The translations under genes and the position numbers were made by a program. Below the pieces are notes generated by a model. It was given only the letters and a program-made list of their open reading frames with translations, had not been told where the DNA came from and ran no database searches. Shown here piece by piece: positions 1,294 through 24,749 of a stretch of DNA of 64,000 nucleotides; positions within the stretch are counted from its first letter, which is position 1, and the number at the start of each line of letters is the position of its first letter. Location: IMG/VR virus record IMGVR_UViG_3300032223_003493, positions 1 to 64,000 of that record, one strand, 5' to 3'. The stretch comes from a virus.

Positions 1294-2163
1294 TTATTTT
1301 ATATATGCATGAAGTAAATGTCTATTTGTAGGATTATCTTCAATTATATCAAAAAACATATTTTCTTCTTGAACAAATTTTTCAGAATAATCTCTGTAAA
1401 AATTATTACTTTTATGCAAACAATATCTAGTCCAAAATAATAATCTATCCCCTTTGTTCAAAGGGTTTCCATGATGGAGTCCAAATGTATCTGCAAAAAT
1501 TGCAGTTCCAGCTTTTCCAGTAATAACTTTTTTATCACTCATATCATCTGAACCATTATGCGTATTAGCATAATAGATATGAGGACCATTATCTTCATCC
1601 ACATCAGATAAATAAATAAAAAATGCTAAGAACTTAAAATCATCATAGTCTCGGTGAAGATTTTGGGTATGAAATGTTTCACCTGTATATTTGCTCCACC
1701 ATGAACTTACTGAAGTTATTGTTGGAAGACAACCCAAATATTCTTGTATTGTGGCAATTACATCAGGTCTAGTTATTAAGTTTAATATTTGCGCATTGTG
1801 CATAAGATGATTAGTCTTGTAAGCACATGAATTCCAATTTAAATTAGCATCATACTTTTGAGGAATTTTGTTAAAAGCCCTGTTTGGAATGTGAAAATTA
1901 TATCCTTTTATGTCATTTAAGTAATTTTTAATTTTTACAACTTCGTCTTCAGATAGAAAATTTTCTACTACAGAATAACCATTTTCTCTAAGATCGTTTA
2001 CAATTTTATTATTAGGTTGCACATTGATTTTTGGTACGTGATCATTTACAACTTCACAGATTTCGCTTTGGTATTTTTCTCTTAAATCTACTTGTTTGTA
2101 AAGAGAAATATCTTCTCCTGGCGGCATATTGATTTTAGTTCTAATTAAATTTTCTATGTCCAT
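1294..2163 (-). CDS. 2OG-Fe(II) dioxygenase, phytanoyl-CoA dioxygenase (PhyH)-like
   Basis: HxD (LHRDYDD), NGPHIYY, distal His (GLHHG) and Arg (GDRLLF). Confidence 0.8.
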   Translation of the reverse strand: MDIENLIRTKINMPPGEDISLYKQVDLREKYQSEICEVVNDHVPKINVQPNNKIVNDLRENGYSVVENFLSEDEVVKIKNYLNDIKGYNFHIPNRAFNKIPQKYDANLNWNSCAYKTNHLMHNAQILNLITRPDVIATIQEYLGCLPTITSVSSWWSKYTGETFHTQNLHRDYDDFKFLAFFIYLSDVDEDNGPHIYYANTHNGSDDMSDKKVITGKAGTAIFADTFGLHHGNPLNKGDRLLFWTRYCLHKSNNFYRDYSEKFVQEENMFFDIIEDNPTNRHLLHAYIK

Positions 2164-2231
2164 ATAAATTCCTTTAAATTCATTTTACCAATTATTCAAT
2201 CTTATCATTACATGTATCGTTTATTTCAGAG

Positions 2232-2237
2232 TATAAT
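2232..2237 (+). promoter_or_regulatory. -10 box, probable leaderless promoter
   Basis: TATAAT 6 nt before ATG 2244, no SD. Confidence 0.5.
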
Positions 2238-2243
2238 TTGTTT

Positions 2244-3560
2244 ATGACTAAAGAAGAATTGCTTAAATTGGTTGAAGATTATGTGAAGAATGAGCCAACC
2301 AAAAAATGGCGTCCTGGCAAAGATCACGTTCATTATGCTGGTCCTTATTTTGACCATAGTGAAATTGTAAGATCGGTCTCTACATTATTAGATGGTTGGC
2401 TTGTATTGGGTGCCGAAGCATATAAAGCAGAGAAAAAATTAGCTTCATTATTTGGCAAAAATCACGCTTTATTGACTAATTCAGGCAGCAGTAGTAATCT
2501 TCTTATGATGTCTGCACTTAAGTCAAAAAGATACTTGAATTTACCTGAAGGAACCAAAGTATTGACTCCGATTGCTGGTTTTCCTACCACCATCAATCCT
2601 ATTTTCCAATGTGGATTTAAGCCCGTATTTGTAGATATTTCTTTGGATGGATTGAACCTAAATCTCGATGATGTTGAAGCAACATTGCAAGCAGACCCAG
2701 AAATAAAAATAATAACATTTGCTCACGTATTAGGAAATCCTCCTGATATGTACAGATTATTAGATATTATCGATCATTATGGATTGATATTACTGGAGGA
2801 TTGTTGTGATGCTTTGGGATCAATATACGACGGTAATCCTTTGGGCAGTTTTGGCACTATGGCTTCTTGCTCTTTCTACCCTGCTCATCATATTACTTGT
2901 GGAGAAGGCGGATTAGTTGTTTGCAATGATGAAAATTTAGAAAAAGTAATTCGTTCTATTCGTGATTGGGGTCGTGGTTGTTTCTGCATAGGTAAGCAAA
3001 ACATCACTGAATGTGGAGCTTGTAATCAAAGATTTTCAGAATGGCTACCAAGTATGCCAGGAGAAGTTTTTGATCATAAGTATGTTTATGAAGAAATTGG
3101 CTATAATCTCAAACCAATTGAAGTTCAAGCGAGTATGTTGTTAGCTCAAATTGAAAAACTTGGTGAAATTAAAAAATTACGTCAAAGAAATCATAAATTA
3201 CTTTTTGATATCTTCAGCAAATATGAAGAATATTTTGTTCTTCCTGTGGCTCAAAAGAATGCAGATGTGAATTGGTTTGCTTTTCCAATAACAGTTAAAG
3301 ACAATGCGCCATTTAAGAGAAGTGATATATGTCAGTATTTAGAATCAAAGAAAATTCAAACTAGACCATATTTTGCTGGAAATATTTTGATGCAACCAGC
3401 GTATAGTCATTTGGTTGGCGATATGGATCTGAACGATTTTCCAGTAGCCAAAAAAGTTACCACTGATACTTTCTTTTTAGGAACATCACCAGTTATAAAA
3501 GAAGAACAAATAGATTATATCGGTGAAGTTATTGATTCATTTTTTGTATCTATAGGGTAA
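2244..3560 (+). CDS. rfbH: CDP-4-keto-6-deoxyglucose 3-dehydratase (E1, RfbH/DdhC)
   Basis: NSGSSSNLL, EDCCDALG, SFYPAHHITCGEGG (His at the PLP-Lys position), RDWGRGCFC...C Fe-S motif, DHKYVYEEIGYNLKP. ATG 2244 preferred over TTG 2238. Confidence 0.92.
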   Translation: MTKEELLKLVEDYVKNEPTKKWRPGKDHVHYAGPYFDHSEIVRSVSTLLDGWLVLGAEAYKAEKKLASLFGKNHALLTNSGSSSNLLMMSALKSKRYLNLPEGTKVLTPIAGFPTTINPIFQCGFKPVFVDISLDGLNLNLDDVEATLQADPEIKIITFAHVLGNPPDMYRLLDIIDHYGLILLEDCCDALGSIYDGNPLGSFGTMASCSFYPAHHITCGEGGLVVCNDENLEKVIRSIRDWGRGCFCIGKQNITECGACNQRFSEWLPSMPGEVFDHKYVYEEIGYNLKPIEVQASMLLAQIEKLGEIKKLRQRNHKLLFDIFSKYEEYFVLPVAQKNADVNWFAFPITVKDNAPFKRSDICQYLESKKIQTRPYFAGNILMQPAYSHLVGDMDLNDFPVAKKVTTDTFFLGTSPVIKEEQIDYIGEVIDSFFVSIG

Positions 3561-3564
3561 TTTT

Positions 3565-3927
3565 ATGATTTTATCAAAACCAACTATTTTTTGCGACATT
3601 GATGGTACTTTAGTTAAACACTGTCCATTATCTGAAAGTATAAAGCCAGATCACAAACTCGAACTTTTGCCTGGAACCATTGAAAAAATAAATGAATGGG
3701 AAAGTAAAGGATATAGAATTATTCTTACAACTGGCAGAAAAGAATGTTCAAGAAAAATATTAGAGAAGCAACTTTTTGAAGTTGGAATTTTTTATGATCA
3801 GCTTGTAATGAATATTGGCGGTGGTGCAAGATATCTAATCAATGATGATAAACCAGATGGTGAAAATGCATCCTTCGCAATTTGTATAAAAAGAAATGAA
3901 GGAATTTCTGGGGTTGAAATATCATGA
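3565..3927 (+). CDS. Small HAD-family phosphatase (capsule-biosynthesis type)
   Basis: DIDGTL motif I, TTGR motif II, INDDKP. Confidence 0.8.
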   Translation: MILSKPTIFCDIDGTLVKHCPLSESIKPDHKLELLPGTIEKINEWESKGYRIILTTGRKECSRKILEKQLFEVGIFYDQLVMNIGGGARYLINDDKPDGENASFAICIKRNEGISGVEIS

Positions 3928-5036
3928 TTTTATATATAAATGTTTTCATTACACAAGAAAAAATTGTCAATCAAGGTAATGTGGTCAGAGAAAATGCTAA
4001 ATATTCCAACAATTTAGACATTTATAAATATATGTTAGCAAGTTTATCGAATTTCTTTCCTTGGAAAAGAGTTATTATAAACACTAAACTTGATGATTAT
4101 TATGAATCACGTCGTGAAGAACTAAATAATTTTATCAATCAAGAATTTTCTCAATATGATTTGATTGTAAGAAATACAAGAAACGAATATCAAAATGATT
4201 GGCAGAATGATTATGATTTGATAAATGACAATTTACTTCTTTTTTTATGCAATCATGATCATATTTTTACAGATCCAGATCCAAGTTATTTTGCAAGTTT
4301 AGTAGACAAATTCAAAGACAGTGATGATTATATAGGCATTCAATTTACTGCTTATCCAGAATTAGGTATGTTTCCTTGGTGTCCAATTCCCTGGAATTCT
4401 TTAGAAAATATGAATTTTGAATTAGAAGAAGATTATATGTCTTTTAAATATCCATGTATTCATTCAGCTCAAGTAATTACTAAAAAGGTTTATCATCATT
4501 GGTGGTTTGATTATCAACTTCCAAACACTATTTTTGGAAGACCAGATTGGTTCACTGACCATATTACAGCTTACCATAAATATGAAGATTTAAAATTTAT
4601 AGTGCCATTCAGAGAGACAACTAGACACTTTGACGGATATCAACATTGCACTATCACTTTTGGAAACCAAGTTTGTCCAGTATTAGAAATACCTGATGGT
4701 TTTTTTGAAAATGATATCAAGATAAATTATTCAACTAACTACATAAATGGTAAAACAAATATCAATCCCATCACGAACAAGCTCAAGATTTACGCTGAAG
4801 ACGGCTTTGAACTTAACATGTCAAAAAAATACATCCCGCATTTTTGGAAAAATAAAATAAGTGAGTTTAAAGATGATTTTTCGCTAATTGGGGATGTATG
4901 GACAGAGAATGAATTGGATGAACTTTACATAAAAAGAATTACAGGCTTTTGGAATCACGTACCTAATAATGATTGCCATTTAGCACAAGAAATCAAAAAA
5001 AGGATTAGTAGCTGGTACAAAAAAGTCAAAACTTGA
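3924..5036 (+). CDS. Hypothetical protein, possible GT-A glycosyltransferase
   Basis: 370-aa ORF coupled by ATGA overlap. Hydrophobic strand followed by NHDHIFTD, in a glycan cluster. Confidence 0.4.
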   Translation: MILYINVFITQEKIVNQGNVVRENAKYSNNLDIYKYMLASLSNFFPWKRVIINTKLDDYYESRREELNNFINQEFSQYDLIVRNTRNEYQNDWQNDYDLINDNLLLFLCNHDHIFTDPDPSYFASLVDKFKDSDDYIGIQFTAYPELGMFPWCPIPWNSLENMNFELEEDYMSFKYPCIHSAQVITKKVYHHWWFDYQLPNTIFGRPDWFTDHITAYHKYEDLKFIVPFRETTRHFDGYQHCTITFGNQVCPVLEIPDGFFENDIKINYSTNYINGKTNINPITNKLKIYAEDGFELNMSKKYIPHFWKNKISEFKDDFSLIGDVWTENELDELYIKRITGFWNHVPNNDCHLAQEIKKRISSWYKKVKT

Positions 5037-5316
5037 TCTTTCCCCTTAAAATATCCCATAACATCATCCAGTCACTGATTTTTGCTTTGACTGGATCCTT
5101 GAAAGCAGCTGGTTGATTTTTCTCAAAAAAGAAATGTCCTGACCATGCAAAAGGATACACGATGAAAGGTGTTAAGAGCAATAAGAAATACATCTGATAA
5201 TAAAAGCAACCAATGACCCATAAAATTGTCATAAATTGTCCTAGAACGTGTAATCTTCTGCAAATTTTATTTTGATGCAACGTTAAATACATTGCGTAAT
5301 ATTCTTTCAAATTCAT
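5026..5316 (-). CDS. DUF962 / Mpo1-like small membrane protein
   Basis: YLTLHQNKICRRLHVLG and AWSGHFFFEKNQPAAF signatures with hydrophobic segments. Start could be 5325 or 5316. Confidence 0.85.
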   Translation of the reverse strand: MNLKEYYAMYLTLHQNKICRRLHVLGQFMTILWVIGCFYYQMYFLLLLTPFIVYPFAWSGHFFFEKNQPAAFKDPVKAKISDWMMLWDILRGKIKF

Positions 5317-6080
5317 ATAGTACATACTCCCTTTTTTTGAACAACTATAGTTGCACAGTGTTGAGCAAATTTAATTGCGTCGATAATATTATTTGTGCGA
5401 ACATATTCACAAACTAATCCAGAGATAAAAGTGTCTCCCGCTCCTGAGACATCTTTGATATTAACTCTGTCTACTGGATATATTTTACCTTGATATTCAC
5501 AACCATCATTCGAACGTGTAATAATAAGTTGATCTTTGATATTTAATTGATCAATTGTGTGTTCAGTGCGATCATATTCAACATGATTAATTTTTATAAA
5601 AGAAACATGTTTACACCAATCACCTAAAATTTTCTTCGTGTCTAAAAAAATATTAGAATTATTTTTAGATATTTCACAAATATCTTCTTCACTTAAAAAA
5701 CCTTTACAATAATCGCTAATAATAATAGCATCATAAAACACTTCTAAATAAAAATTATTTTTAATTGATTGAATTATATCTTTACTTATTCTGTTAGCTT
5801 TGTCATTTGTATCTACTCTAAGTAAAAGACTATTAGTTCTGGAATCAACATATCTAGTTTTGACAATTTTTTCTTCTTGAGTAATCAAGGTCGAATTAGC
5901 ACCAATAGCATCAATATTATGCTTTACATTAAGAGCCATACCACCATTCTTTTGTTCGTGATGGGGGTTAAAAACTGGCACTGGGCCCTCAGGTGCTAGA
6001 CGAAATACATTTCCGTATAGAAAAACATCAGAGCAAGAATCGCCAATTACTAATATTTTTATGTCTTTATAATCATTCAT
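5313..6080 (-). CDS. rfaE: PfkB-family kinase, heptose-7-phosphate kinase (RfaE/HldE kinase domain) type
   Basis: LVIGD, RLAPEGPVPV, GGMALNV, ISDYCKG, DVSGAGDTF. Confidence 0.85.
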   Translation of the reverse strand: MNDYKDIKILVIGDSCSDVFLYGNVFRLAPEGPVPVFNPHHEQKNGGMALNVKHNIDAIGANSTLITQEEKIVKTRYVDSRTNSLLLRVDTNDKANRISKDIIQSIKNNFYLEVFYDAIIISDYCKGFLSEEDICEISKNNSNIFLDTKKILGDWCKHVSFIKINHVEYDRTEHTIDQLNIKDQLIITRSNDGCEYQGKIYPVDRVNIKDVSGAGDTFISGLVCEYVRTNNIIDAIKFAQHCATIVVQKKGVCTI

Positions 6081-6087: not shown

Positions 6088-6597
6088 TTATCTTAAGAAT
6101 TGTGAATTTATATCTCTTTCTGACAAAATAGGATCATCAATACCCCAATCAATGTTTATTGTAGGATCTTTCCAATTTACTGAAAATTGTTGATCAACAT
6201 CAGGATAAGAGCCTTCATAACTCCATTTGTAATAAAACACTGCACTTTCACTTAAAACCAAATGTCCCGTTAAAAAATTAGGAGGTACTATCAAACTTTG
6301 CTTTATTGGACTACTACTATCAAGAGTGAAAATTTGCCACTTCAAATATTGATCAGAATCTTTTCTAAAATCTACAACAGCAAATTTGATTAAACCATGT
6401 ACACAAGAAATATATTTATGAGATTTGCTATCACCATGAAGGCCTCTCAAAACATTTTTCTTAGATACAGCAACCTTATCATGATTGAAGAACAAATCTA
6501 AAGGAAAATTATTTGAATTATAATTTGTCCAAAGATCTCCCCTCAAGTCAGAAAAGCAATCATTTTCAAACACTAAAACATCACGCAAATTATCCAT
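6088..6597 (-). CDS. rfbC: dTDP-4-dehydrorhamnose 3,5-epimerase family
   Basis: DLRG, VLRGLH, VVDFR, WKDPTINIDW, ILSERD. Confidence 0.88.
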   Translation of the reverse strand: MDNLRDVLVFENDCFSDLRGDLWTNYNSNNFPLDLFFNHDKVAVSKKNVLRGLHGDSKSHKYISCVHGLIKFAVVDFRKDSDQYLKWQIFTLDSSSPIKQSLIVPPNFLTGHLVLSESAVFYYKWSYEGSYPDVDQQFSVNWKDPTINIDWGIDDPILSERDINSQFLR

Positions 6598-7759
6598 TTA
6601 AGACCTCAAGAAGTTTAATAATTTTTTCTTTTTGTAAGCCTGGATAATTTCCAATATACCAGGAAAAATTATGTATATGTTCTATATTTGGAAAATCATC
6701 AAATTCATTGTAAATTGATTTAAAGAAGGGCTGTCTCATTTGATTGCCACCACCTGACAAGCCTCTTCTAAATTCAATGCCGTTTTCTTTGAGTTTATCT
6801 TCAAGAGCATTTCTCATTTCAAAGTCAGCGTCTTTCAAAATCACAATAAAAGCATAATTACAATTTCCATCTGTGTCCAAGGAAATATGATACTTTTCTG
6901 GATTTAAATTTGATATGAATAAATCAAAGTTGTCTCTTCTTTCTTGATTTTTTTCATCAAGTTTTTTAAGTTGAGAAAGTCCAATTACTGCATTTATTTC
7001 AGTGCTTCTAAAATTATGCGAAGGTCTTAAAAAAATAAAGTCTGGATTAAGATCAGGATTTTGATCAATAATTTGCTGCCTCATAGTAACATCTGATATT
7101 TCTCTTGTCATACCATGTGATCGCAAGGCTCTACAAATTTGATAAAACTTAGAATTATTGGTACAAATCATTCCACCTTCTATAGTGGACATATGATGAG
7201 CAAAGTAAAAACTGAAATTACTTGCAAAACCAAAATTTCCAACTTTGCTTCCCTGAAAAGTTGTGCCATGTGATTCGCAAACATCTTCAATTAACAAAAT
7301 ATCATTGTCTTCACATATTTTTAATAACTCATCACTTAGTCCATTGATTCCTAAAACGTGAGTAAGAAAAATAGCTTTTGTGTCAGGCGTGATTGCAGAT
7401 TTTAATTTTTCTAAATCAAAAGAAAGATTTGTTAAATTGACATCAACAAATACCAATTTATGTCCAGCAAATAAAACTGAAGAAATATCAGATATCCAAG
7501 TTAAAGGAGGAACAATAATTTCTCCCTCTCCCACCATTTGCGCAAGAGCAAGCATTGTTAATTCATTTGCTGAAGCTCCTGAATTTACAAATAGATTGTA
7601 TTTAGTACCGAGCCAATCTCCCCAAGCTTTTTCAAATTCCAAAACTTTTGGTCCATTTGTAAGCTTAGGTATGCTATCTTGAGACAAAAAATCAATTACA
7701 GAATTAACATCTTCTTTATCAATATTGTCATTCATTAAGGGAAGAAAAAAATTATTCAT
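6590..7759 (-). CDS. DegT/DnrJ-family PLP enzyme, ColD-like GDP-4-keto-6-deoxymannose 3-dehydratase type
   Basis: VNSGASAN, EDVCESHG, FYFAHHMSTIEGG (His for Lys), RSHGMTR, no Fe-S cysteine motif. Start 7759 inferred. Confidence 0.8.
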   Translation of the reverse strand: MNNFFLPLMNDNIDKEDVNSVIDFLSQDSIPKLTNGPKVLEFEKAWGDWLGTKYNLFVNSGASANELTMLALAQMVGEGEIIVPPLTWISDISSVLFAGHKLVFVDVNLTNLSFDLEKLKSAITPDTKAIFLTHVLGINGLSDELLKICEDNDILLIEDVCESHGTTFQGSKVGNFGFASNFSFYFAHHMSTIEGGMICTNNSKFYQICRALRSHGMTREISDVTMRQQIIDQNPDLNPDFIFLRPSHNFRSTEINAVIGLSQLKKLDEKNQERRDNFDLFISNLNPEKYHISLDTDGNCNYAFIVILKDADFEMRNALEDKLKENGIEFRRGLSGGGNQMRQPFFKSIYNEFDDFPNIEHIHNFSWYIGNYPGLQKEKIIKLLEVLNG

Positions 7760-7766
7760 ATGAAAC

Positions 7767-16549: not shown

Positions 16550-16614
16550 AAAATTCTCTTGTTTTATTATACATCAAGATAAATCGTATAATATTATTTA
16601 TTATAGGTGCAAAA
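16550..16614. promoter_or_regulatory. Divergent promoter region
   Basis: GTATAAT on both strands between divergently transcribed operons. Confidence 0.55.
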
Positions 16615-17598: not shown

Positions 17599-18548
17599 TA
17601 GTTTATATTACAGGATGCTTGGGATTTATAGGCTCATATGTTACTAAAGCTTGCCTAGATCGTGGATGGTATGTGTATGGAATTGATAAATGTACATATG
17701 CCTCTAATTCATATAAGCTTGAGGAATTTTCTACATATCCAAAATTTAAATTTGAAGAGATTGATATTTGTAAAATTGATAGATTGATAGATTGTGATTA
17801 TTTCATAAATTGTGGAGCAGAAACTCATGTAGATAATTCTATTCGTAAGAGTGATGAGTTTATGCATTCAAATATTATGGGAGTATATAATATTCTTGAA
17901 TTATTGAAAAATTACAGAAGAGATAATAGCTCAACACCCGTATTTTTTCAGTTCAGTACTGATGAAGTGTATGGAGATATTATAGATGGATCTCACACCG
18001 AAACTGATATTCTTAAACCTTCTAATCCTTACTCTGCAACAAAAGCAGCAGCCGATCAACTAATTACTGCTTGGGCAAGGACTTATTCTTTTCCTTATAT
18101 TATTTTGAGACCTACTAATAATTACGGAATAGGACAATATGTAGAAAAGCTAATCCCAAAGTCTTGCAAATATCTCACATTAGGAAGAAAAATACCTTTG
18201 CACGATGAAGGTTTGCCTGTTCGAAACTGGTTGCATGCTAGAGACACAGCATCTGCAGTTATTACAATCATCGAATCAGGTCAAATTAATCAAATATTCA
18301 ATGTCGCTAGTAATTTTGAGCAAAGAAACATAGATACTGCAAAAAAAATTATTGCTAACTATTTTGGAACATCAGATATTGATTACATGGATTATATTGA
18401 TTTCAAATCATTGAATAGACCAGGCCAAGATATTAGATACGCTCTTGATGACAGTAAATTGAAAAATTTAGGATGGAGTGCTGTTTGTGATTTTGACAAA
18501 GAACTTGTAGAGATTGTGGATTATTATAAACATCACTTTGTATGGTAA
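17595..18548 (+). CDS. rfbB: dTDP-glucose 4,6-dehydratase
   Basis: GCLGFIG, DKCTYA, AETHVDNS, STDEVYG, PYSATKA, RPGQDIRY. Confidence 0.93.
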   Translation: MIVYITGCLGFIGSYVTKACLDRGWYVYGIDKCTYASNSYKLEEFSTYPKFKFEEIDICKIDRLIDCDYFINCGAETHVDNSIRKSDEFMHSNIMGVYNILELLKNYRRDNSSTPVFFQFSTDEVYGDIIDGSHTETDILKPSNPYSATKAAADQLITAWARTYSFPYIILRPTNNYGIGQYVEKLIPKSCKYLTLGRKIPLHDEGLPVRNWLHARDTASAVITIIESGQINQIFNVASNFEQRNIDTAKKIIANYFGTSDIDYMDYIDFKSLNRPGQDIRYALDDSKLKNLGWSAVCDFDKELVEIVDYYKHHFVW

Positions 18549-18556
18549 AATTAAGT

Positions 18557-20062
18557 ATGTTTAACTTTGAAAATCTTGTTATATTTGAAATGGCTAATAA
18601 TCATATGGGAGATATGAATCATGCCAAAAACATTATTCGTGAATTCTCATATTTTATTACGAAATATCCTCAATTCAAATTTGCAATGAAATTTCAAATG
18701 AGAGATTTAGACACACTCATACATGAAAGCCATAGACAAAACTCAACTAACAAAGCAGTTTTAAGATTTCAATCTACAAGATTATCTTATGATCAATTTT
18801 ACGAATTGAAAAATTTTGCATCTGAACAAGGATTTTACACAGCTTGTACTGCGTTTGACGAAATATCATTGCAAAAATTGATTGAAATCGATTTTGATAT
18901 CGTCAAAATAGCAAGTTGTTCAAATTCTGATTTTCCATTACTCAATGAAGTAGTAAAGCAAGATAAGCCAATTATTATAAGTTTTGGAGGATCTCAAATT
19001 GAACAAATTGATTTGACAGTAAATTTTTTCAAAAATAGAAAGAAAAATTTTGCTATACTTCATTGTGTTGGTGAATATCCTACACCTAGCAATCATTTGA
19101 ATCTAAATAAAATTGATAAGTACAAATCAAGATATGGTTTACCTGTCGGATATTCCACCCATGAAGAAACTTCTAATATACAAGCTGTTGGTCTTGCAAT
19201 TGCTAAAGGTGCTTGTATTTTAGAAAAGCATATTGGATTAGAAACGAATGAATATAAGCTAAATAATTATTCTACTAATTTAGAAGAAACTGACGCTTGG
19301 CTATTGTCTGCGCAAAAGGCATTAGAATCTTGTGGTGATATGTTTGCAGAGCCATCTGAACGTGAAATACAAGATATTTCTCAATTTGCTAGAGGTGTTT
19401 TTCTTAAAAGAAACATCCTTGCTGGTGAAAATATAACAAAGGATGATTTGTACTTTGGTATTCCACTTGACACTCAAAATGGACAAATTCCAGTGTCAGA
19501 TTTGTCGAAATATACATTGATGAAAGCATCTACAAATTTGTCTAAAGATGACAGTTTGTTGTATGAAGATGTTGAAATTTGCAATCTTAGAAACACGATA
19601 TTCAGCATTACAAAAGACGTGAATAAATTTGTTAAAGATGCTAACTTAATTATTCCTGAAGATTGCGTTTTAGAAATTTCAGCACATTATGGAATTTCAG
19701 ATTTTTACAAACATGGCTGTGCTATTTTTTCTTTGATAAACAGAGAATACTGCAAAAAATATATTATTTTACTTCCAGGTCAGATTCATCCAACTCAATA
19801 TCATAAAATAAAAGAAGAAACTTTTATTTTGATTTCTGGAGAATTGAAATTAAAAATCAATGAAGAAGTAAACCTTTTAAAGCCGGGAAGCGTTCATGTT
19901 ATTCAACGAGGCGCCAAACATGAAATGGTATCAGAAACTGGCTGTATTATTGAAGAATTATCTACTACTCATATTCCTAATGATTCATATTATTTAGATG
20001 ATAGCATAAATAAAAATGAAAATAGAAAGTTTGTTGTAAATTACTGGAGATTATATGATTAA
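18557..20062 (+). CDS. neuB: N-acetylneuraminate synthase (NeuB) family with SAF and C-terminal cupin domain
   Basis: EMANNHMG, KIAS, HCVGEYP, GYSTHE, EKH, SAF-like region, then YCKK...HPTQYHKIKEETF cupin. Start 18557 or 18542. Confidence 0.88.
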   Translation: MFNFENLVIFEMANNHMGDMNHAKNIIREFSYFITKYPQFKFAMKFQMRDLDTLIHESHRQNSTNKAVLRFQSTRLSYDQFYELKNFASEQGFYTACTAFDEISLQKLIEIDFDIVKIASCSNSDFPLLNEVVKQDKPIIISFGGSQIEQIDLTVNFFKNRKKNFAILHCVGEYPTPSNHLNLNKIDKYKSRYGLPVGYSTHEETSNIQAVGLAIAKGACILEKHIGLETNEYKLNNYSTNLEETDAWLLSAQKALESCGDMFAEPSEREIQDISQFARGVFLKRNILAGENITKDDLYFGIPLDTQNGQIPVSDLSKYTLMKASTNLSKDDSLLYEDVEICNLRNTIFSITKDVNKFVKDANLIIPEDCVLEISAHYGISDFYKHGCAIFSLINREYCKKYIILLPGQIHPTQYHKIKEETFILISGELKLKINEEVNLLKPGSVHVIQRGAKHEMVSETGCIIEELSTTHIPNDSYYLDDSINKNENRKFVVNYWRLYD

Positions 20063-21833
20063 AGTATCAGATTATATTATTCAAAGACTTGAAAGTGAAG
20101 TAAAACATATTTTCTTAATTCCAGGAGGAGGATGCATTCATTTAGTAGATTCTTTGGGTAAAAGCAATATACAACCTATAGCAAATTTGCACGAACAAGG
20201 GTCTGGTATTTGCGCTGAAGCATATTCTCAATATACTAATAATATTGGAGTTGCATTAGTAACTACTGGTCCAGGTGGTACTAATATAATTACTCCACTG
20301 ACGTCTGCTTGGCTTGATTCAATCCCAATGCTTGTTCTTGCTGGTCAAGTTCAAAAGAAAGATATGGTTAGCTATCATTCTATAAGGCAACTGGGATTTC
20401 AAGAAGTCAATCTAATCAAAATGGTTCAAGGAATTACTAAATATTCAGAGTGTGTCAAAAATCCTGAAGAAATTCCATATCATTTAGAAAAAGCACTTTA
20501 TTTAGCTAAAAATGGAAGACCAGGTCCTGTTGTTTTAGAGATCCCATTGGATGTTCAATCATCAACAATAGATTTAGATAATTGCAAGAAATTTCAAGCA
20601 CCTCAGCAAGAAGAAAATAAAATTGATATTGATTCCGTTATCCAAGCAATAAACAATAGTAAACGACCAATAATTCTCGCTGGAAATGGTGTTAGGCTTG
20701 CTGGTGCTGAAAATTTATTCACAGATTTTATAAATCAAGTAAAAATTCCCACACTTCTAACTTGGAAATCATTAGATTTTTTACCTGAAGATCATGAACT
20801 TTATGTTGGTAGACCTGGAGGAGTAGCATCCAGAGGTGCAAATTTCAACCAGCAAAATTCAGATCTAATTATTTGTTTGGGTGCAAGATTAGATCATGGA
20901 CAGTTAGCTTACCAAGCAAAATATTTTGCTAGAAAAGCAAAAAAAATTATAGTTGATATTGATATTTTTGAAATTAGAAAATTAGGAATTGAAGTTGACT
21001 TTGCAATAAATATAGATTGTAAAAAATTCCTAAATTTACTCTTAAGCAATATTGAAAAAATAAATATAAAAACTAATGATTGGCTAGATCACTGCAAAAA
21101 AGCATATGAAAAATATCCAATATGCTTACCAGAATACTACGAACAAAAAAACTTTATTAATAATTATGTTTTTATTGAAGAGTTATCAAAAAATCTTCCT
21201 GAAAATTCTTTGATTGTTCCTGGAAGTTCTGGTGCTTGTAGCGAAGTCACAATGCAAGCTATAAAAGTGAAATCTAATACAAGAATCTTCAATAGTGAAG
21301 GTTTGGGATCTATGGGTTTTGGCATACCTGCAGCAATTGGAGCTTGTATAGCTTCAGGTAAGAAGCCAACAATTTGCATAGATGGTGATGGCGGATTTGT
21401 CATGAATATGCAAGAGCTAGAATTAGTTAACAGATATAACTTACCAATAAAGTTTTTTATCTTAAACAATAATGGATATGGCTCAATAAAGACTACTCAA
21501 AACAATCACTTCGGTGGGAAACTTGTTGCAAGTGATCCATCTAGTGGATTGACTTTGCCAGATATAAGCAAGATTTCTTTTAGTTTTGGTATTGAACATA
21601 TTAAAATTTTTGATAACAATATGCTAATTTCTTTATTGCCAAAAATAATTAAAAAAGAATCAGCTTTAATTATTGAACTAATGATTGACCCAAATCATAA
21701 AACATTTCCAAAAGCAGCGGTATTCAAGACCGAAGATGGATTATTTTCAACAAGACCAATGGAAGATTTGCAACCTTTACTTAGCAGAGATGAATTAAGA
21801 TCAAACATGTTGATTGATACAATAGATTGCTGA
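20055..21833 (+). CDS. ThDP-dependent acetolactate-synthase-like enzyme (YerE-type)
   Basis: GGGCIHLVDS, HEQ, TTGPGGTN, GRPGPV, GSMGFG, GDGG...NN, in a sugar cluster with RfbH. Confidence 0.88.
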   Translation: MIKVSDYIIQRLESEVKHIFLIPGGGCIHLVDSLGKSNIQPIANLHEQGSGICAEAYSQYTNNIGVALVTTGPGGTNIITPLTSAWLDSIPMLVLAGQVQKKDMVSYHSIRQLGFQEVNLIKMVQGITKYSECVKNPEEIPYHLEKALYLAKNGRPGPVVLEIPLDVQSSTIDLDNCKKFQAPQQEENKIDIDSVIQAINNSKRPIILAGNGVRLAGAENLFTDFINQVKIPTLLTWKSLDFLPEDHELYVGRPGGVASRGANFNQQNSDLIICLGARLDHGQLAYQAKYFARKAKKIIVDIDIFEIRKLGIEVDFAINIDCKKFLNLLLSNIEKINIKTNDWLDHCKKAYEKYPICLPEYYEQKNFINNYVFIEELSKNLPENSLIVPGSSGACSEVTMQAIKVKSNTRIFNSEGLGSMGFGIPAAIGACIASGKKPTICIDGDGGFVMNMQELELVNRYNLPIKFFILNNNGYGSIKTTQNNHFGGKLVASDPSSGLTLPDISKISFSFGIEHIKIFDNNMLISLLPKIIKKESALIIELMIDPNHKTFPKAAVFKTEDGLFSTRPMEDLQPLLSRDELRSNMLIDTIDC

Positions 21834-21871
21834 TAAAAAAACCCATCGGTATAATAAAAAGAGGTAAATGA

Positions 21872-22387
21872 ATGAGTTTAATTAAGTTTCATGTTGAAGA
21901 TGAAAACCCATTTAACCATTGGGACCATTTGATAGTTAAGGATCAAGTTGTATTAGATCTTGGATGCGGTAAGCATTATATTCAAGATGGCTGGATGACT
22001 ACTCCAGAATTTTTTTTACATAAAGGTGCAAAAAAAGTAGTAGGTGTAGATCCACATATTGATGATATTGAGTATTACAAACAAGTTCATCCAGATTCTT
22101 TATTTTTCAAAGATTGTGTATTGAGTGCTGATCATCTTGATAGTTATATGAATAACTATGATGTTACTGCTGTCAAAATGGATATTGAAGGGCATGAAAG
22201 ACATCTAATTGAATCAGCTAGCACTTATCCAAATATCAAACACATTGCAGTAGAAACTCACAATCGTGAATTGTTCCATAATGTAATGATGCGTCTAGCA
22301 GATTTAGGTTTTGAAATCACTCATGTAGCTACATTTTATCCAAGAGTATACAATGAGTGTAATTTAATTGTAGCAAATAGGCCATAA
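21872..22387 (+). CDS. SAM-dependent methyltransferase (FkbM-like)
   Basis: LDLGCG, KMDIEGHE, VETH. GAGG SD and upstream TATAAT. Confidence 0.75.
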   Translation: MSLIKFHVEDENPFNHWDHLIVKDQVVLDLGCGKHYIQDGWMTTPEFFLHKGAKKVVGVDPHIDDIEYYKQVHPDSLFFKDCVLSADHLDSYMNNYDVTAVKMDIEGHERHLIESASTYPNIKHIAVETHNRELFHNVMMRLADLGFEITHVATFYPRVYNECNLIVANRP

Positions 22388-23280
22388 TGAGAATTTTAGT
22401 TACTGGAGCCAATGGTTTTATAGGGACTAACTTTATAAAAAAATTCAGTAACAAGTCTGATATTCTTGCAGTTTCAACTAGAAATACCAATATTGCTTCT
22501 TTCTCAGATGTAGAATTTTTAGAATTAGAACTTAAAAATTATGATAATTTACCGTCAATAGTAAATAAGTTTAAACCTGAAATAGTTCTACATTTAGCCT
22601 GGGAAGGAAGCAATACTTATTACCACACTAATTCAATAAATCAGTTTGAAAATATTACTAACTCTTTTAAACTCTTAGAAGCTATATCAGAATTAGAAAA
22701 TGTGCATTTCATTGGTATGGGAACAGGTGGAGAATATGGATATTATTCAGATTATGTTTCTGAAAGCTTTGAAGAAAATCCAGTTAGTCATTATGGGTTA
22801 GCTAAATTACTCTTTAAGCAAGGTTCAGAGATTTTCTGCTCCAAGAAAAACATAACATGGACATGGTTAAGACCTTTTATGTGTTATGGGCCTTATGATG
22901 TTAAAACAAGATTGATTCCCAAAGTTATCAACAGTTGTTTACTAAATGAATCTCTTAGATTAGATTCTTGCGAATCAAAAGTAGATTATTTGTACATTGA
23001 TGATGCTATAGATGCAATAGAAAAAATTATATATCTACGAAAAAGTGGCGTGTTCAATATTTGTTCAAACAAAGAGTACCAAGTTAGATCAATTATTGAA
23101 GTTATAACAAATCATTTTCAAGTAAATAATGTAATTTTTGATAGTTCTCTAAATAGAAAAAATTTTTGTGAGTCAGTTATTGGCGACAATTCAAAACTTA
23201 TAAATGAATTAGAATGGACGCACAAAACACAAATTTTTGAAGGTTTGTTAAAGACAATTGATTTTTTTAAAGGTAAGTAA
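22387..23280 (+). CDS. NAD-dependent NDP-sugar reductase/epimerase (SDR)
   Basis: GANGFIG, HLAW, YGLAK, YGP. Confidence 0.88.
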   Translation: MRILVTGANGFIGTNFIKKFSNKSDILAVSTRNTNIASFSDVEFLELELKNYDNLPSIVNKFKPEIVLHLAWEGSNTYYHTNSINQFENITNSFKLLEAISELENVHFIGMGTGGEYGYYSDYVSESFEENPVSHYGLAKLLFKQGSEIFCSKKNITWTWLRPFMCYGPYDVKTRLIPKVINSCLLNESLRLDSCESKVDYLYIDDAIDAIEKIIYLRKSGVFNICSNKEYQVRSIIEVITNHFQVNNVIFDSSLNRKNFCESVIGDNSKLINELEWTHKTQIFEGLLKTIDFFKGK

Positions 23281-23283
23281 ATT

Positions 23284-23937
23284 ATGAATAATTTTTCAAG
23301 CAAATTGGTATTTTTAGATGACAAATGGCATTGGAGAAATGATGATACAGATCTCAAGTGCTACAAAGGCTGGCAAGAAGAGAATCAGCTTTTAGAAATT
23401 TTAGAAAGACATTTAGATAAAAAAGATGTTATGGTTCAAGCTGGTGGAAATTGTGGAATGCAAGTTGTTAAGTTTGCTGACAAATTTAAAATGGTGTACA
23501 CATTTGAACCAGATCCAGTAAATTTTCAATGTTTAGTAGCAAATTTACCATACACTAACGTAGTAAAATTGCAAGCTTGTGTAGGCGATTCACATCAATT
23601 GTTAGACGTAGACTTCTTTGTTGATGATATCGGATCAATTCATGTGAAAAACAATAAAGGCAAAATCCCAACTCTTAAGATTGATGATTTAGCTTTAGAA
23701 TCATGTGATTTGATTCAGTTAGATGTTGAAGGCTTTGAATATTTTGCTTTGAATGGTGCTATTGAAACTATAAAGAAATTTCATCCACTTCTTTGCTTGG
23801 AGTTTACTTGGTTGCAAAGATATGGTGTAAATATGGACAAGATGATGCGTCTTTTAGCAAGTTTAGGTTATGAGCAAGTTGATTCATACACCAATGATTA
23901 TATTTTTAAATACAAGAAGTTGAGTTTTAGCATCTAA
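23284..23937 (+). CDS. FkbM-family methyltransferase
   Basis: QAGGNCG, FEPDP, QLDVEGFE. Confidence 0.88.
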   Translation: MNNFSSKLVFLDDKWHWRNDDTDLKCYKGWQEENQLLEILERHLDKKDVMVQAGGNCGMQVVKFADKFKMVYTFEPDPVNFQCLVANLPYTNVVKLQACVGDSHQLLDVDFFVDDIGSIHVKNNKGKIPTLKIDDLALESCDLIQLDVEGFEYFALNGAIETIKKFHPLLCLEFTWLQRYGVNMDKMMRLLASLGYEQVDSYTNDYIFKYKKLSFSI

Positions 23938-24749
23938 TGAAAAATGTACTTTTAAACTTCATTCAAGGAAAAAATATTGCTGATTCCTTAGATATGGAAA
24001 TTTATTTATCATCATTGAGTAAGTTCAAGACATTTGATAAAATTTTGTTTGCTAATTATATTACTGATGCTCAAACTGCAATGTTGAGCAAGTACTATGA
24101 TCAAATTATCAATGTTCCAGATAGAGAGTATCCAGTTGTAGGGTACAAAGTTTATCATGACTGGCTATGTGAATATGGTATGCATTATGAATATGCTATG
24201 CATTGTGATATGCGAGATGTAATTATTCAAAAAGATCCATTTGAATTTATGAGAAACATGCCCGAAAAAGATTTATTTTTGTGCGCTGAGGGAATGAAGA
24301 TATCTGAAAGCGAATGCAACAGAATTTGGCATGATTGGTTCTTGACAACTGTATCATTTAACAAACATAAGTATGATGATTCAGAAGTTTTGAATGGTGG
24401 AACTTATGGTGGAAAACTTTCTTCAGTTTTGCTTTTTACCCAAATGGTATTAATTGGAATGAATAGATTGACAATGAGACCTGCTGTAATGCCAGATCAA
24501 GCAGTTTTAGGATTTTTAGAAAGACAACTGAAAATTAATCCTAGAGTAAATATTTGTCATCCTTACAGAGACACATTTGCTTGCACTGGAGAAGCAATTA
24601 AATACGATGATATAGAAGTTTTTTATGATGGCAAACTAGTCACAAATAAAGATGGGGAACCTTATTGTATTTTTCATCAATGGGATAGAACAGAAATTTG
24701 CAATACAGTGAGAGAAAAAGCAGCTAATACTTTACATTTCTCTCTCTAA
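23937..24749 (+). CDS. Putative GT-A glycosyltransferase (PLOD GT-domain-like)
   Basis: CDMRDVIIQKDPF, LNGGTYGG, DQA, HQWDR. Confidence 0.6.
   Translation: MKNVLLNFIQGKNIADSLDMEIYLSSLSKFKTFDKILFANYITDAQTAMLSKYYDQIINVPDREYPVVGYKVYHDWLCEYGMHYEYAMHCDMRDVIIQKDPFEFMRNMPEKDLFLCAEGMKISESECNRIWHDWFLTTVSFNKHKYDDSEVLNGGTYGGKLSSVLLFTQMVLIGMNRLTMRPAVMPDQAVLGFLERQLKINPRVNICHPYRDTFACTGEAIKYDDIEVFYDGKLVTNKDGEPYCIFHQWDRTEICNTVREKAANTLHFSL

Follow-up and report, generated by a model that had tools for sequence, protein, structure and literature searches.

A predicted rare-sugar and glycosyltransferase island in a recombination hotspot beside the capsid gene of a large freshwater phage

The window analyzed here, 64,000 nucleotides of IMG/VR record IMGVR_UViG_3300032223_003493, belongs to an 82.9-kb contig that is a fragment of a ∼360- to 380-kb freshwater phage related to Bacillus phage G. 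Positions 1294 to 24749 hold a 23.4-kb island of 27 non-overlapping open reading frames (ORFs) for making and linking unusual sugars. A preliminary description of this DNA had counted 27 contiguous genes, mostly sugar enzymes, and that count was exact; 22 of the 27 ORFs matched a Pfam family at an E value of ≤0.001, and the five with no Pfam match at this threshold were those at 3924-5036, 7767-8531, 16148-16549, 16615-17598, and 23937-24749. The enzymes include an E1/RfbH-type 3-dehydrase, an RmlB-like dehydratase, a NeuB-cupin fusion, a heptose-type kinase, and three methyltransferases, together with a B12 radical SAM enzyme and thiamine-dependent C-C enzymes of three kinds. Judged from these families, the phage carries a rare-sugar and glycosyltransferase island whose products are all soluble. 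Sigma-70-like GTATAAT boxes were present at the starts of island operons and none were seen before the flanking structural genes, which suggests that the island may be expressed apart from the late genes. In the coordinates below, strands are given as + or −.

On the left, the start of the contig cuts a capsid-decoration-like gene (1-345, +), of which the 3′ part is present and the 5′ end is open. In relatives the full-length protein (about 230 aa) stops just before the major capsid protein (MCP) gene, the place occupied in phage G by decoration gp26, and its identity is 56 to 88% where that of the MCP is 97 to 100%, with fast evolution in Ser/Thr-rich loops. The MCP (380-1234, +; phrog_2522, E = 3.6e-68) was 47.9% identical to Bacillus phage G gp27, with residues 1 to 283 of 284 aligned, and this alignment revealed no extra C-terminal acceptor tail. 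Homology to Mycobacterium phage MCPs, such as that of Myrna, was distant (25% identity). A GC-rich hairpin of 9 bp, with A7 on one side and T6 on the other (about 1250-1286, no strand assigned), is likely a bidirectional terminator separating the MCP gene from the island. The earlier placement of the island start right after an MCP terminator therefore agrees with a direct reading of the sequence, though the terminator scan gave 0 sites and left the hairpin uncalled.

The gene at 2238-3560 (+) encodes an E1/RfbH-type PMP-dependent NDP-4-keto-6-deoxyhexose 3-dehydrase, which exceeded the equivalog cutoff of NF011936 (441 versus 423 bits), matched E1 structure PDB 3bcx (E = 2.5e-96), and keeps the active-site His in SFYPAHHIT. 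Translation probably begins at the ATG at 2244, with GTATAAT 13 nt upstream. Other genes for nucleotide-sugar conversion encode an RmlB-like NDP-glucose 4,6-dehydratase (17595-18548, +; TIGR01181, E = 2.8e-84, 283 bits with a cutoff of 365), an RmlC-like cupin 3,5-epimerase/isomerase (6088-6597, −; PF00908, E = 2.8e-35), a DegT-family sugar aminotransferase (6590-7774, −; PF01041, E = 2.9e-70), and two SDR NDP-sugar epimerases/reductases (14510-15478, −, and 22387-23280, +; PF01370, E = 2.5e-35 and 1.2e-33, respectively). The PfkB-family sugar(-phosphate) kinase (5313-6080, −) resembles HldE domain I (TIGR02198, E = 1.6e-35, under the cutoff; phrog_8133, E = 6.6e-82) and was 40 to 47% identical to cyanomyovirus kinases. 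In relatives its gene is always adjoined by that of the Mpo1/DUF962-like small membrane protein (5026-5325, −; PF06127, E = 5.8e-29). A short HAD-type phosphatase-like protein (3565-3927, +; PF08282, E = 3.7e-6; phrog_1238) has a homologue in the cassette of cyanophage P-SSM2.

The thiamine-dependent enzymes comprise a split transketolase-like enzyme (10114-11837, −; C half at 10114-11049, N half at 11046-11837; PF02779, PF02780, and PF00456 domains; NF004559, 116.8 and 187.9 bits), a PDH-E1-like pair (12838-13979, −; beta-like at 12838-13374, alpha-like at 13374-13979; PF02779 and PF00676) whose fused form is phrog_34187, and an acetolactate synthase (ALS)-family enzyme with three TPP_enzyme domains (20055-21833, +; TIGR00118, 375 bits with a cutoff of 538). 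The last is a candidate YerE-like sugar C-acylating carboligase, a role taken from the portion of PMC4753412 that deals with this enzyme. The NeuB-family PEP-condensing synthase fused to a cupin (18542-20062, +; PF03102, E = 1.5e-45, plus PF07883) matched PDB 3g8r, a "spore coat polysaccharide biosynthesis protein E" (E = 4.1e-76), and its cupin is like D-lyxose isomerase 2y0o.

Among the tailoring genes, the three methyltransferases and the B12 radical SAM enzyme of the preliminary description were all recovered: a TylF-like Methyltransf_24 SAM enzyme (15457-16194, −; PF13578, E = 1.9e-18), a short FkbM-like enzyme (21872-22387, +; PF05050, E = 2.2e-6), an FkbM-family enzyme (23284-23937, +; PF05050, E = 3.2e-14; TIGR01444, 59 bits with a cutoff of 37.7), and a B12-binding radical SAM enzyme (8533-10065, −; PF04055 plus PF02310). 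The last is probably a C-methyltransferase or a rearranging enzyme, and its best PDB match, to AprD4, was weak (E = 5.6e-8). There are also a PhyH-family Fe/2OG dioxygenase (1294-2163, −; PF05721, E = 7.2e-9), a DUF4254 protein (13992-14507, −; PF14063, E = 1e-7), and a 133-aa protein without a family match (16148-16549, −), which adjoins the SDR in relatives and is 82 to 92% identical in two of them (L012 and L032).

Five glycosyltransferase (GT)-fold candidates, two GT-B and three GT-A, were found in the island. Of the "about five" GTs proposed earlier, one is visible to Pfam and the other four are candidates backed by structure or transitive homology. The Pfam-visible protein is a GT-B enzyme of the Glyco_trans_1_2 family (11827-12831, −; PF13524, E = 4.7e-14), which we take to be the family of Bacillus subtilis CgeB; it has paralogues in three related loci (L004, L006, and L013). 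A GT9-like (heptosyltransferase-fold, GT-B) candidate (16615-17598, +) has an ESM-Atlas model that matches a cluster composed of 97% PF01075 (TM, 0.66/0.64), and its nearest clusters are 92 to 100% viral. A divergent GT2-like (GT-A) candidate (7767-8531, −) has 52 remote homologues; PF00535 was matched by 15 of the 40 that were scanned and not by the protein itself. The GT-A-fold protein at 3924-5036 (+; AF2 pLDDT, 94.4) has an invariant N110-H-D-H113 motif. VIA-align placed GT-A GTs on top (Z = 9.3 to 8.6, residues 1 to 237) and nucleotidyltransferases at Z = 7 to 8, but Foldseek matches were weak and a GT-A Z of about 9 barely exceeds background, and the modeled fold makes the protein a candidate GT or, less probably, a nucleotidyltransferase. 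At the right edge, a GT6-like GT-A-fold GT (23937-24749, +; AF2 pLDDT, 90.2) matched GT6 alpha-1,3-GalT and GTA/GTB in Foldseek (E ∼ 1e-8; TM, 0.47 to 0.57), and D91, R93, and D94 are invariant. It has 94 homologue clusters. Its gene adjoins a d194 homologue in L016, L020, and L021, and it keeps its place by the structural block where the sugar cargo of a relative is small or of another kind; in L016 it is the sole sugar gene in the 1.4 kb of post-MCP sequence.

To the right lies a conserved block of unannotated proteins (24732-36440, −; 194, 416, 128, 490, 816, 284, and 1567 aa), for which no Pfam or PHROG match was found and which are presumed to be structural. Ser plus Thr makes up 18 to 22% of five of the seven, and in L027, a relative without the island, all but the last (1567 aa) come after the MCP in the same order. 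The sole family match in the minus-strand block at 24732-41866 was a Mu gp36-like head-tail adaptor (37229-37723), and a tape-measure-like gene begins at 42126. These two genes bear out part of the earlier statement that the island abuts a tail block; the adjoining block is otherwise without family matches.

The locus was compared with 29 loci whose MCP was at least 94% identical. Window-type sugar genes followed the MCP in 22, in differing sets; of the remaining seven, two had other sugar cargo, two had none, and three were too short. Related phages thus retain a sugar island beside the MCP and exchange its content, as had been predicted. Distant relatives carried unrelated cargo at the same site, and LAGLIDADG homing endonucleases lay directly 3′ of the MCP gene in 3 of 13 close loci and in 4 of 11 distant ones. 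The site is a general hotspot, often with homing endonucleases. Relatives G001, G002, and G004 also have sugar genes 90 to 140 kb away from the MCP. Because of the hotspot and these distant genes, adjacency to the capsid gene is weak evidence of capsid glycosylation, and the argument that the preliminary description drew from it is not supported, since a recombination hotspot explains the position at least as well. In one relative without the island (G003, 84% complete), which is otherwise collinear in the flank, there were 0 matches for five sugar families, and the island appears to be accessory.

In line with the earlier claim, the ORFs of the 82.9-kb contig gave no match to a Wzx, Wzy, ABC, Gtr, or initiating-transferase family. 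A hydropathy scan gave one segment in the Mpo1/DUF962 protein, previously named as the only evident membrane protein, and a second segment in an SDR that we read as a false positive arising from the Rossmann core. In the 358-kb relative G001 (89% complete), 0 of 393 ORFs had five or more hydropathy segments. Neither a nucleotidyltransferase nor an E3 reductase was found in the 82.9 kb, and the pathways are therefore incomplete as seen. Among bacteria, the core module was found in a single locus, L104, which has the PfkB kinase beside a fused E1 alpha-beta protein, with GT9, GT2, DegT, and C-methyltransferase genes, and its cluster includes genes for a Wzx-family (Polysacc_synt) flippase and PMT_2 (GT-C).

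Polymorphic sugar clusters are already known from jumbo T4-like cyanophages (P-SSM2, S-SM2, P-TIM68, and S-CAM1), where they are termed sugar or "LPS" clusters (Iyer et al. 2021, section 3.4.10 of PMC7824862). As that section presents them, they share with the island SDR epimerase/dehydratase paralogues, cupin isomerases, a PfkB kinase, a small HAD protein, oxygenases, and several GT families, as well as content that varies among related phages, a location near structural genes, and a putative target. The island is larger (27 genes in 23.4 kb, compared with a 15-gene cyanophage cluster), adds E1-type 3-deoxygenation, the three thiamine-dependent C-C enzymes, the NeuB-cupin fusion, and the B12 radical SAM enzyme, and lies in a phage-G-like lineage, fixed 3′ of the MCP gene; the cyanophage clusters have a HIGH-type nucleotidyltransferase, whereas the island has none within 82.9 kb. 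The Yersiniose A pathway of the Yersinia pseudotuberculosis O-antigen (DdhA-D, YerE, and YerF), as far as it is outlined in PMC4753412, likewise combines a 4,6-dehydratase, an E1 3-dehydrase with the catalytic His, an ALS-family enzyme, and SDR reductases, and the PDH-E1-like pair of the island may have counterparts in the branch-forming pairs AviB1/AviB2 and Pau11/Pau12. In contrast to that pathway, the contig has no DdhA nucleotidyltransferase or E3 reductase, and its dehydratase is RmlB-like rather than CDP-type.

Virion glycans offer further parallels. In the Megavirinae described in PMC10117803 (Notaro et al. 2022), virus-encoded nucleotide-sugar pathways and GTs produce rare bacterial-type sugars that vary between clades, with clusters of 6 to 33 genes leading to clade-specific fibril glycans. 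Those are eukaryotic giant viruses with chemically proven virion glycans containing bacillosamine, viosamine, or quinovosamine, whereas the predicted sugars of the island are branched, deoxy, and methylated. According to the pertinent part of PMC12619734, mycobacteriophages encode soluble GTs that act on subunits of the capsid and tail tube. The mycobacteriophage glycans are on C-terminal extensions; the MCP here has none. Freeman et al. (2023) reportedly described mycobacteriophage virion glycosylation, and those phages have few sugar-synthesis genes. Flagellin Pse/Leg islands and the B. subtilis sps/cge spore crust are cases of cytoplasmic protein O-glycosylation without a lipid carrier, in which strain-variable sugar islands lie by a structural gene and encode NeuB/SpsE-type synthases. 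The likeness is one of analogy. No Maf/motility-associated GT and no CMP-sugar synthetase were found, with PF02348 present in 0 of 5 relatives.

We tentatively favor, at somewhat less than even probability, the reading that this accessory island in the post-MCP hotspot makes a virion glycan. Soluble enzymes would draw on host NDP-glucose and sugar phosphates to form several rare sugars. The RmlB-like dehydratase and the E1-type 3-dehydrase would yield a 3,6-dideoxy-4-keto hexose; the ALS/YerE-like enzyme, PDH-E1-like pair, split transketolase, and NeuB-like synthase would give C-branched or chain-extended derivatives; further tailoring would produce aminated, C-methylated, O-methylated, and hydroxylated sugars; and a heptose-type kinase/phosphatase route would activate one sugar. 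The five GT-fold proteins would then assemble an oligosaccharide in the cytoplasm. The indications point weakly to virion surface proteins as acceptors, which might be the decoration protein or Ser/Thr-rich members of the neighboring block. Recombination at the MCP gene and the flank, both conserved, could swap cassettes, perhaps with the aid of homing endonucleases, and each phage lineage would have its own glycan coat. Pointing toward the virion are the position of the island between the capsid gene and the conserved Ser/Thr-rich block, the retention of the GT6-like GT by that block in L016, the fast change of the decoration-like neighbor in its Ser/Thr-rich loops, the fibril glycans of Megavirinae, and the location of the related kinase/HAD/cupin/SDR cassette of P-SSM2 among tail-fibre genes. 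Counting against it are the MCP without an added C-terminal tail, a site that says little in view of its unrelated cargo and homing endonucleases, the sugar genes 90 to 140 kb from the MCP in three relatives, and the incomplete pathways.

Remodeling of the host envelope is a serious but doubtful alternative, in which the GTs, working on the cytoplasmic side, would attach the same rare sugars to a lipid-linked acceptor of the host, be it LPS core, an O-unit, or a capsule precursor, and host MsbA/Wzx-type machinery would export the product. Several observations that count against a virion glycan favor it: the flippase and PMT_2 genes in the envelope-polysaccharide cluster of L104, the GTATAAT boxes at the starts of island operons, which suggest transcription by host RNA polymerase, and the GT9-like enzyme. 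The classical acceptor of GT9-family enzymes is lipid A-core. The hotspot can account for the position by the MCP. The kinase is related to that of the cyanomyovirus "LPS" clusters, which Iyer et al. interpreted as serving host O-antigen diversification (PMC7824862, section 3.4.10), although that interpretation is itself putative. The preliminary description had taken the missing export genes as an argument against an envelope target; this does not hold, as the GT9-like and GT2-like enzymes could use lipid-linked acceptors and the product could be exported by the host despite the lack of phage export genes. On the other side, initiating transferases, flippases, polymerases, ligases, and Gtr proteins were not found in the contig, and G001 has no ORF with five or more hydropathy segments; the phage would depend on the host for every membrane step, including a flippase that accepts a foreign unit. 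The receptor-masking systems known to us use far less than five GTs and >15 tailoring enzymes. If this reading is true, the surface of infected cells would be altered so that, for example, superinfection is blocked or progeny are kept off debris.

It is rather improbable that the island makes a soluble sugar-derived metabolite (aminoglycoside-like or a pseudo-oligosaccharide) or a glycolipid instead of a macromolecule-bound glycan. The enzyme set does overlap those of aminoglycoside and aminocyclitol clusters (kinase, phosphatase, GTs, and methyltransferases), DegT enzymes have relatives among the scyllo-inosose aminotransferases (PDB 7b0d, E = 5.9e-37), AprD4 is the best, if weak, PDB match of the radical SAM enzyme, and the cassette of one relative (L019) has a dehydroquinate-synthase-like sugar-phosphate cyclase. 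For a second cyanophage cluster, Iyer et al. proposed a sugar-derived secondary metabolite in the relevant portion of PMC7824862. However, no gene in the window was assigned to a cyclase, NRPS/PKS, resistance, or export function, and E1, RmlB-like, and RmlC-like enzymes typify NDP-deoxyhexose glycan pathways.

The suggestion that the sugars are placed on phage DNA is very unlikely. The island is soluble and cytoplasmic, and DNA-glycosylating phage GTs are known (cited in the part of PMC12619734 on such enzymes), but the usual entry enzymes are absent: the ThyA family, which includes dCMP/dUMP hydroxymethylases, was found in 0 of 5 related genomes, of which one is 100% complete, TGT/DpdA was found in 0 of 5, and neither family appeared in the Pfam scans of the contig. 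The relative without the island is otherwise collinear in the flank. To our knowledge, the sugars of modified DNA are simple hexoses or pentoses. Finally, although the contig is metagenomic, an assembly artifact joining a host polysaccharide locus to phage DNA can be practically dismissed, given that homologous sugar genes follow the MCP in 22 other, separately listed IMG/VR loci, that the first scan of 185,579 species genomes gave no close bacterial homologue of the PfkB kinase, that the nearest clusters of island proteins are viral, that the GC content of the island (0.30 to 0.35) matches the remainder of the contig, and that collinearity with G001 spans both island junctions.

Between positions 1294 and 24749, 3′ of the major capsid protein (MCP) gene (380 to 1234), the island is filled by 27 ORFs, as the preliminary description had it. 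Pfam matches at E ≤ 0.001 were obtained for 22 of them and were combined with NCBIfam and PHROGs annotation. The island encodes an E1/RfbH-type 3-dehydrase (NF011936, 441 bits against a cutoff of 423 bits; PDB 3bcx, E = 2.5e-96), a PfkB kinase similar to HldE domain I (PF00294; 5313 to 6080), an RmlC-like cupin, a DegT aminotransferase, a PhyH dioxygenase, a short HAD protein, an Mpo1/DUF962 protein, a DUF4254 protein, and a NeuB-family synthase fused to a cupin (PDB 3g8r, E = 4.1e-76). There are also a split transketolase, a pair of PDH-E1 beta-like and alpha-like proteins, and an acetolactate-synthase-family ThDP enzyme (20055 to 21833) that scored below every acetolactate synthase equivalog cutoff. 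Three SDR enzymes (PF01370) lie at 14510 to 15478, 17595 to 18548, and 22387 to 23280; the second is RmlB 4,6-dehydratase-like (283 bits, below the 365-bit cutoff). The three methyltransferases claimed earlier (one TylF-like and two FkbM) and the B12-binding radical SAM enzyme were all present. In the E1-type dehydrase, the catalytic histidine that replaces the PLP lysine is kept in SFYPAHHIT, of which AHHIT aligned with wild-type E1 (3bcx); the lysine form is the 3bb8 variant. No relatedness of the DUF4254 protein and a 133-aa protein without a family match (16148 to 16549) was detectable. The island had been said to start after an MCP terminator, and a hairpin bordered by an A-run and a T-run was read directly between the MCP gene and the first island gene; the terminator scan, which returned no sites, missed it.

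Taken as a tally of candidates, the earlier figure of about five glycosyltransferases (GTs) is fair: three are reasonably supported and two are leads only. The single GT visible to Pfam was a PF13524 protein, for which a PDB sequence search gave chance-level matches only. Structure and remote-homology tests were run on five island proteins without a Pfam family. The ESM-Atlas model of the protein encoded at 16615 to 17598 aligned with a GT9 heptosyltransferase cluster (TM scores, 0.66 and 0.64) in which 97% of the members carry PF01075, and its nearest clusters were 92 to 100% viral. None of the 94 homologue clusters of the protein encoded at 23937 to 24749 had a Pfam domain; its predicted fold (pLDDT, 90.2) gave Foldseek matches to GT6 at E values of about 1e-8 (TM scores, 0.47 to 0.57), and D91, R93, and D94 were invariant. 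For the protein encoded at 7767 to 8531, 52 remote homologues were found among 1.84 billion representatives, and PF00535 matched 15 of the 40 that were scanned. The predicted fold of the 370-aa protein encoded at 3924 to 5036 (pLDDT, 94.4) was ambiguous in Foldseek between nucleotidyltransferases and GT-A GTs; VIA-align slightly favored a GT (Z, 9.3 to 8.6 for GT-A GTs versus 7 to 8 for nucleotidyltransferases, a margin that the tool itself warns is thin).

The window covers bases 1 to 64000 of a linear IMG/VR virus contig of 82,881 bases. Because IMG/VR records sharing its MCP are 300 to 379 kb long (CheckV completeness, 84 to 100%), the contig represents about one-fifth of a huge-phage genome. 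It was collinear with a related 358-kb record (G001) at 65 to 85% nucleotide identity, with the match wrapping around the ends of that record. The MCP matched phrog_2522 (E = 3.6e-68), and its best match among cultured phages was gp27 of Bacillus phage G (47.9% identity over residues 1 to 283 of 284); in this alignment, the 284-aa protein had no added C-terminal acceptor tail of the mycobacteriophage type. The contig begins inside a decoration-like gene, whose 3′ part is the ORF at 1 to 345. In phage G, a decoration gene occupies the equivalent place, and no sugar genes follow the MCP gene. In the decoration-like protein of relatives, the variable stretches are Ser/Thr-rich loops in the C-terminal half; phages with and without the island did not differ clearly in this protein.

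No export or initiating-transferase family was found by Pfam in any ORF of the contig, and GtrA, GtrB, Gtr(type), Wzx, Wzy, Oac, and initiating Und-P transferase were likewise not found in these scans, which bears out the earlier statement that Wzx/Wzy, ABC exporter, Gtr, and initiating transferase genes are lacking. In gene count, enzyme families, GC content, and absence of export families, the observation of a rare-sugar island holds overall. A hydropathy scan marked just the Mpo1-like protein and one SDR in the island, and among the 393 ORFs of at least 60 aa in G001, a crude Kyte-Doolittle scan found none with five or more hydropathy segments and four with two or more. PF00483 nucleotidyltransferases were not found in the contig, about one-fifth of the genome, and occurred in one of five relatives, there inside the island; PF01467 (HIGH superfamily) was similarly not found in this part of the genome and occurred in one of five relatives; PF02348 was found in none of the five. 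No E3-type reductase was found in the contig; a Fer4 protein was present in two relatives (L009 and L017). Host enzymes may stand in for the E3 reductase and the sugar-1-phosphate nucleotidyltransferase. The related genomes were searched for selected families only, and a nucleotidyltransferase or reductase of an unrecognized family may be present in them.

An IMG/VR search with the MCP yielded 156 relatives from 157 matched stretches, of which 80 loci were kept and split by MCP identity. Among the 29 close loci (MCP at least 94% identical), compared by tblastn with the window proteins and, for 144 ORFs from 13 loci, by Pfam, window-type sugar genes lay just 3′ of the MCP gene in 22, and the gene sets differed, confirming that content is swapped beside the MCP gene. 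The recurring core comprised the E1-like dehydrase (75 to 96% identity), Mpo1 (73 to 84%), the kinase (68 to 82%), the RmlC-like protein (50 to 55%), DegT (82 to 86%), and the E1 alpha/beta pair (71 to 88%). The cargo that changed around it included aldolases with a ferredoxin-type protein, a dehydroquinate-synthase-like cyclase, a TylC3-type C-methyltransferase, and extra SDRs and GTs. At least about 18 arrangements, judged by eye, were present among the 22 island-bearing loci, and that of the window was repeated in no close locus. Two further close loci (L021 and L026) carried other sugar cargo (a RuBisCO-like protein, a GHMP kinase, a HAD-nucleotidyltransferase fusion, and a GT92-type GT), three were too short, and two lacked the island. 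In one of the latter (L027), the first six right-flank proteins, from the 194-aa to the 284-aa ORF of 24732 to 31737, had homologues that came after the MCP gene within about 1 kb, their order unchanged; in the other (L016), only the GT6-like gene was found.

The RuBisCO-large-subunit-like protein (PF00016, E of about 5e-33) is encoded at L021:12641-13816 and L026:4749-5924, inside the alternative sugar cassettes; the GHMP kinase accompanies it in both loci, and the HAD-nucleotidyltransferase fusion was seen in L021. The dehydroquinate-synthase-like protein at L019:19820-20839 is a possible sugar-phosphate cyclase, which hints at cyclitol chemistry.

In 11 distant loci (MCP at most 90% identical), examined together with L027 (118 ORFs), the post-MCP site held LAGLIDADG endonucleases (4 of 11), a TnpB-type transposase, an ADP-ribosyltransferase, and assorted genes, and sugar genes were found in L029 and L037 only. 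A LAGLIDADG gene also lay directly 3′ of the MCP gene in 3 of the 13 annotated close loci. It is possible that homing endonucleases drive cassette exchange at this site. The free-standing LAGLIDADG genes directly 3′ of the MCP gene are at L004:10904-12115, L019:11241-12386, L026:1311-2462, L029:11059-12393, L031:11192-12322, L040:11083-12003, and L070:10948-11715. In L029, from a 379-kb relative, an ART-PolyVal ADP-ribosyltransferase and an IS605 OrfB/TnpB-type gene (12986 to 15471) follow the MCP-adjacent endonuclease. A search for five sugar families in an island-less relative (G003, 84% complete) found none, and three other related records (G001, G002, and G004) had additional SDR or GT2 genes 90 to 140 kb from the MCP gene; the island is therefore accessory. 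The argument from capsid adjacency was not supported by these comparisons: because the post-MCP site holds other cargo and sugar genes also lie elsewhere, the position of the island reflects a lineage habit in a hotspot and not conserved functional coupling.

Protein identity of the MCP was 97 to 100% across the window and L004 to L045, compared with 31 to 88% for neighboring proteins and 65 to 85% for DNA. By these values, the close relatives are not near-identical to each other, and purifying selection on the MCP gene is unusually strong.

The motif GTATAAT occurred six times in the window compared with 15.5 expected copies, and four of the six were at starts of island operons (2231 to 2237; 16566 to 16572, minus strand; 16586 to 16592; and 21849 to 21855). 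In window positions 1 to 25000 and 27 close loci, which are not independent of each other, 43 of 59 post-MCP copies preceded the ATG of an ORF of at least 80 aa by no more than 45 nt, and in 22 of these 43 the distance from motif start to ATG was exactly 13 nt. These positions suggest leaderless transcripts, and the true start of the E1-like gene is likely to be 2244.

No close relative of the kinase was found in one genome per species from 185,579 species. A profile search returned a single locus, L104, on a contig of a candidate-phyla-radiation MAG; no other cellular counterpart of the core was found. In that locus, a fused E1 alpha-beta protein is followed by a kinase with 45% identity, with a SIS+CBS sugar-phosphate isomerase, GT9, GT2, DegT, a C-methyltransferase, a PMT_2 GT-C, and a Wzx-family (Polysacc_synt) flippase gene in the surroundings. 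This neighborhood suggests that the core may turn a ThDP-built ketose phosphate into a nucleotide sugar along a heptose-like route (isomerase, kinase, phosphatase, and nucleotidyltransferase); it also shows that, in the cell, the module contributes to an envelope glycan that is exported. Within this polysaccharide cluster, a Zn-ADH, the fused E1 alpha-beta protein, the PfkB kinase, and the SIS+CBS isomerase are at L104:5749-9761. Among cultured phages, relatives of the kinase were found in T4-like cyanophages (40 to 47% identity); in P-SSM2, it is in a cassette of nucleotidyltransferase, kinase, HAD, cupin, SDR, and oxygenase genes among tail-fiber genes.

All pathway steps are ones that we infer from the enzyme families and folds found. 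Host NDP-glucose would be dehydrated at C4/C6 and deoxygenated at C3, and the 4-keto intermediate would be acylated by a ThDP enzyme and then reduced, a logic described in PMC4753412 for yersiniose A and the AviB1/AviB2 pairs. Other branches might be aminated, C-methylated, O-methylated, hydroxylated, or PEP-extended, and five soluble GTs would assemble the oligosaccharide in the cytoplasm.

The GT-A and GT-B folds found do not reveal the acceptor. We lean slightly, and tentatively, toward virion proteins rather than a lipid-linked acceptor of the host. In favor of virion proteins, the island has structural modules on both sides, its GT6-like gene is conserved beside the structural flank, and the neighboring decoration-like protein is fast-evolving; the great complexity of the pathway and the precedent of the Megavirinae (PMC10117803) point the same way. 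Virus-encoded soluble GTs and sugar-nucleotide tailoring enzymes, a feature of virion glycosylation systems, are present. However, the hotspot accounts for the position of the island, the MCP is without an acceptor tail, sigma-70-like promoters of its own precede genes of the island, the fold of one GT is GT9-like, and the glycan made by the bacterial counterpart is exported to the envelope. Transfer to a host lipid-linked molecule, with the product exported by host machinery, is a serious competitor, itself somewhat doubtful. That the product is a small molecule seems improbable. Placement of the sugars on phage DNA, the other option of the preliminary description, is very unlikely: the entry enzymes ThyA (PF00303) and TGT, the deazaguanine transglycosylase (PF01702), were found in none of five related genomes and not in the contig scans. 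The GC content of the island equals that of the flanks, and an assembly artefact is hardly credible.

If virion proteins are the acceptor, huge freshwater phages could conceivably wear lineage-specific coats, in which branched, deoxy, methylated oligosaccharides decorate virion surface proteins and cassettes are shuffled by homing-endonuclease-driven recombination anchored on a near-invariant capsid gene. The diversification of O-antigen serotypes in bacteria would then have an equivalent among phages, and grazers, hosts, or competing phages would shape the "phage serotypes." Virion glycosylation, so far a trait of actinobacteriophages and giant viruses of eukaryotes, would in that case also belong to a widespread, uncultured clade of huge freshwater phages, and the variable island would be a genetic handle on why phage surfaces diversify. 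If the host envelope is the target instead, the island would be the richest phage-borne surface-remodeling kit so far, without a phage membrane protein. Either way, it brings together, naturally and in a small space, enzymes for branched, deoxy, and methylated sugars, the three different ThDP branching systems side by side are of interest to glycan biochemistry, and the conserved MCP with its variable downstream cassette offers a simple marker scheme for tracking these phages in metagenomes.

The kind of system is already known. Section 3.4.10 of Iyer et al. 2021 (PMC7824862) describes polymorphic sugar clusters in jumbo cyanophages with building blocks like those found here and reads them as O-antigen diversification against superinfection. 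As in the clusters of that section, the island has SDR paralogues (one to four there; three here), a PfkB kinase, and GT genes, and its content varies from one related phage to another, whereas the phosphosugar-activating HIGH-superfamily nucleotidyltransferase was not found in the 82.9-kb contig. The pathway to yersiniose-type 3,6-dideoxy-4-C-branched hexoses shares with the island the histidine-bearing E1 3-dehydrase, but its E3 reductase and sugar-1-phosphate nucleotidyltransferase were not found in the contig; nor were the membrane proteins of serotype-converting and Wzx-Wzy systems. The island is more elaborate than published phage examples. New are its size and chemistry (E1 deoxygenation, three ThDP branching systems, a NeuB-cupin fusion, and B12 radical SAM), its fixed site beside a near-invariant MCP gene, and the breadth of cassette exchange. 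A literature search found no description of a post-MCP island in the phage-G-like clade; supplements may list the clade or its clusters. No connection to the clade could be made for the phages of Bacteroidota, 200 to 307 kb in size, that the "moraphage" paper (PMC12619734) describes.

Further along the window, a 3464-aa protein (50131 to 60525) with 11 PKD-domain stretches (PF18911, E = 4.2e-170) and RCC1-like repeats is encoded between tape-measure-like and baseplate-hub-like genes. An unlisted ORF of about 60 aa (41943 to 42122), with cysteine pairs and a zinc-ribbon-like appearance, lies in the gap between divergent structural blocks.
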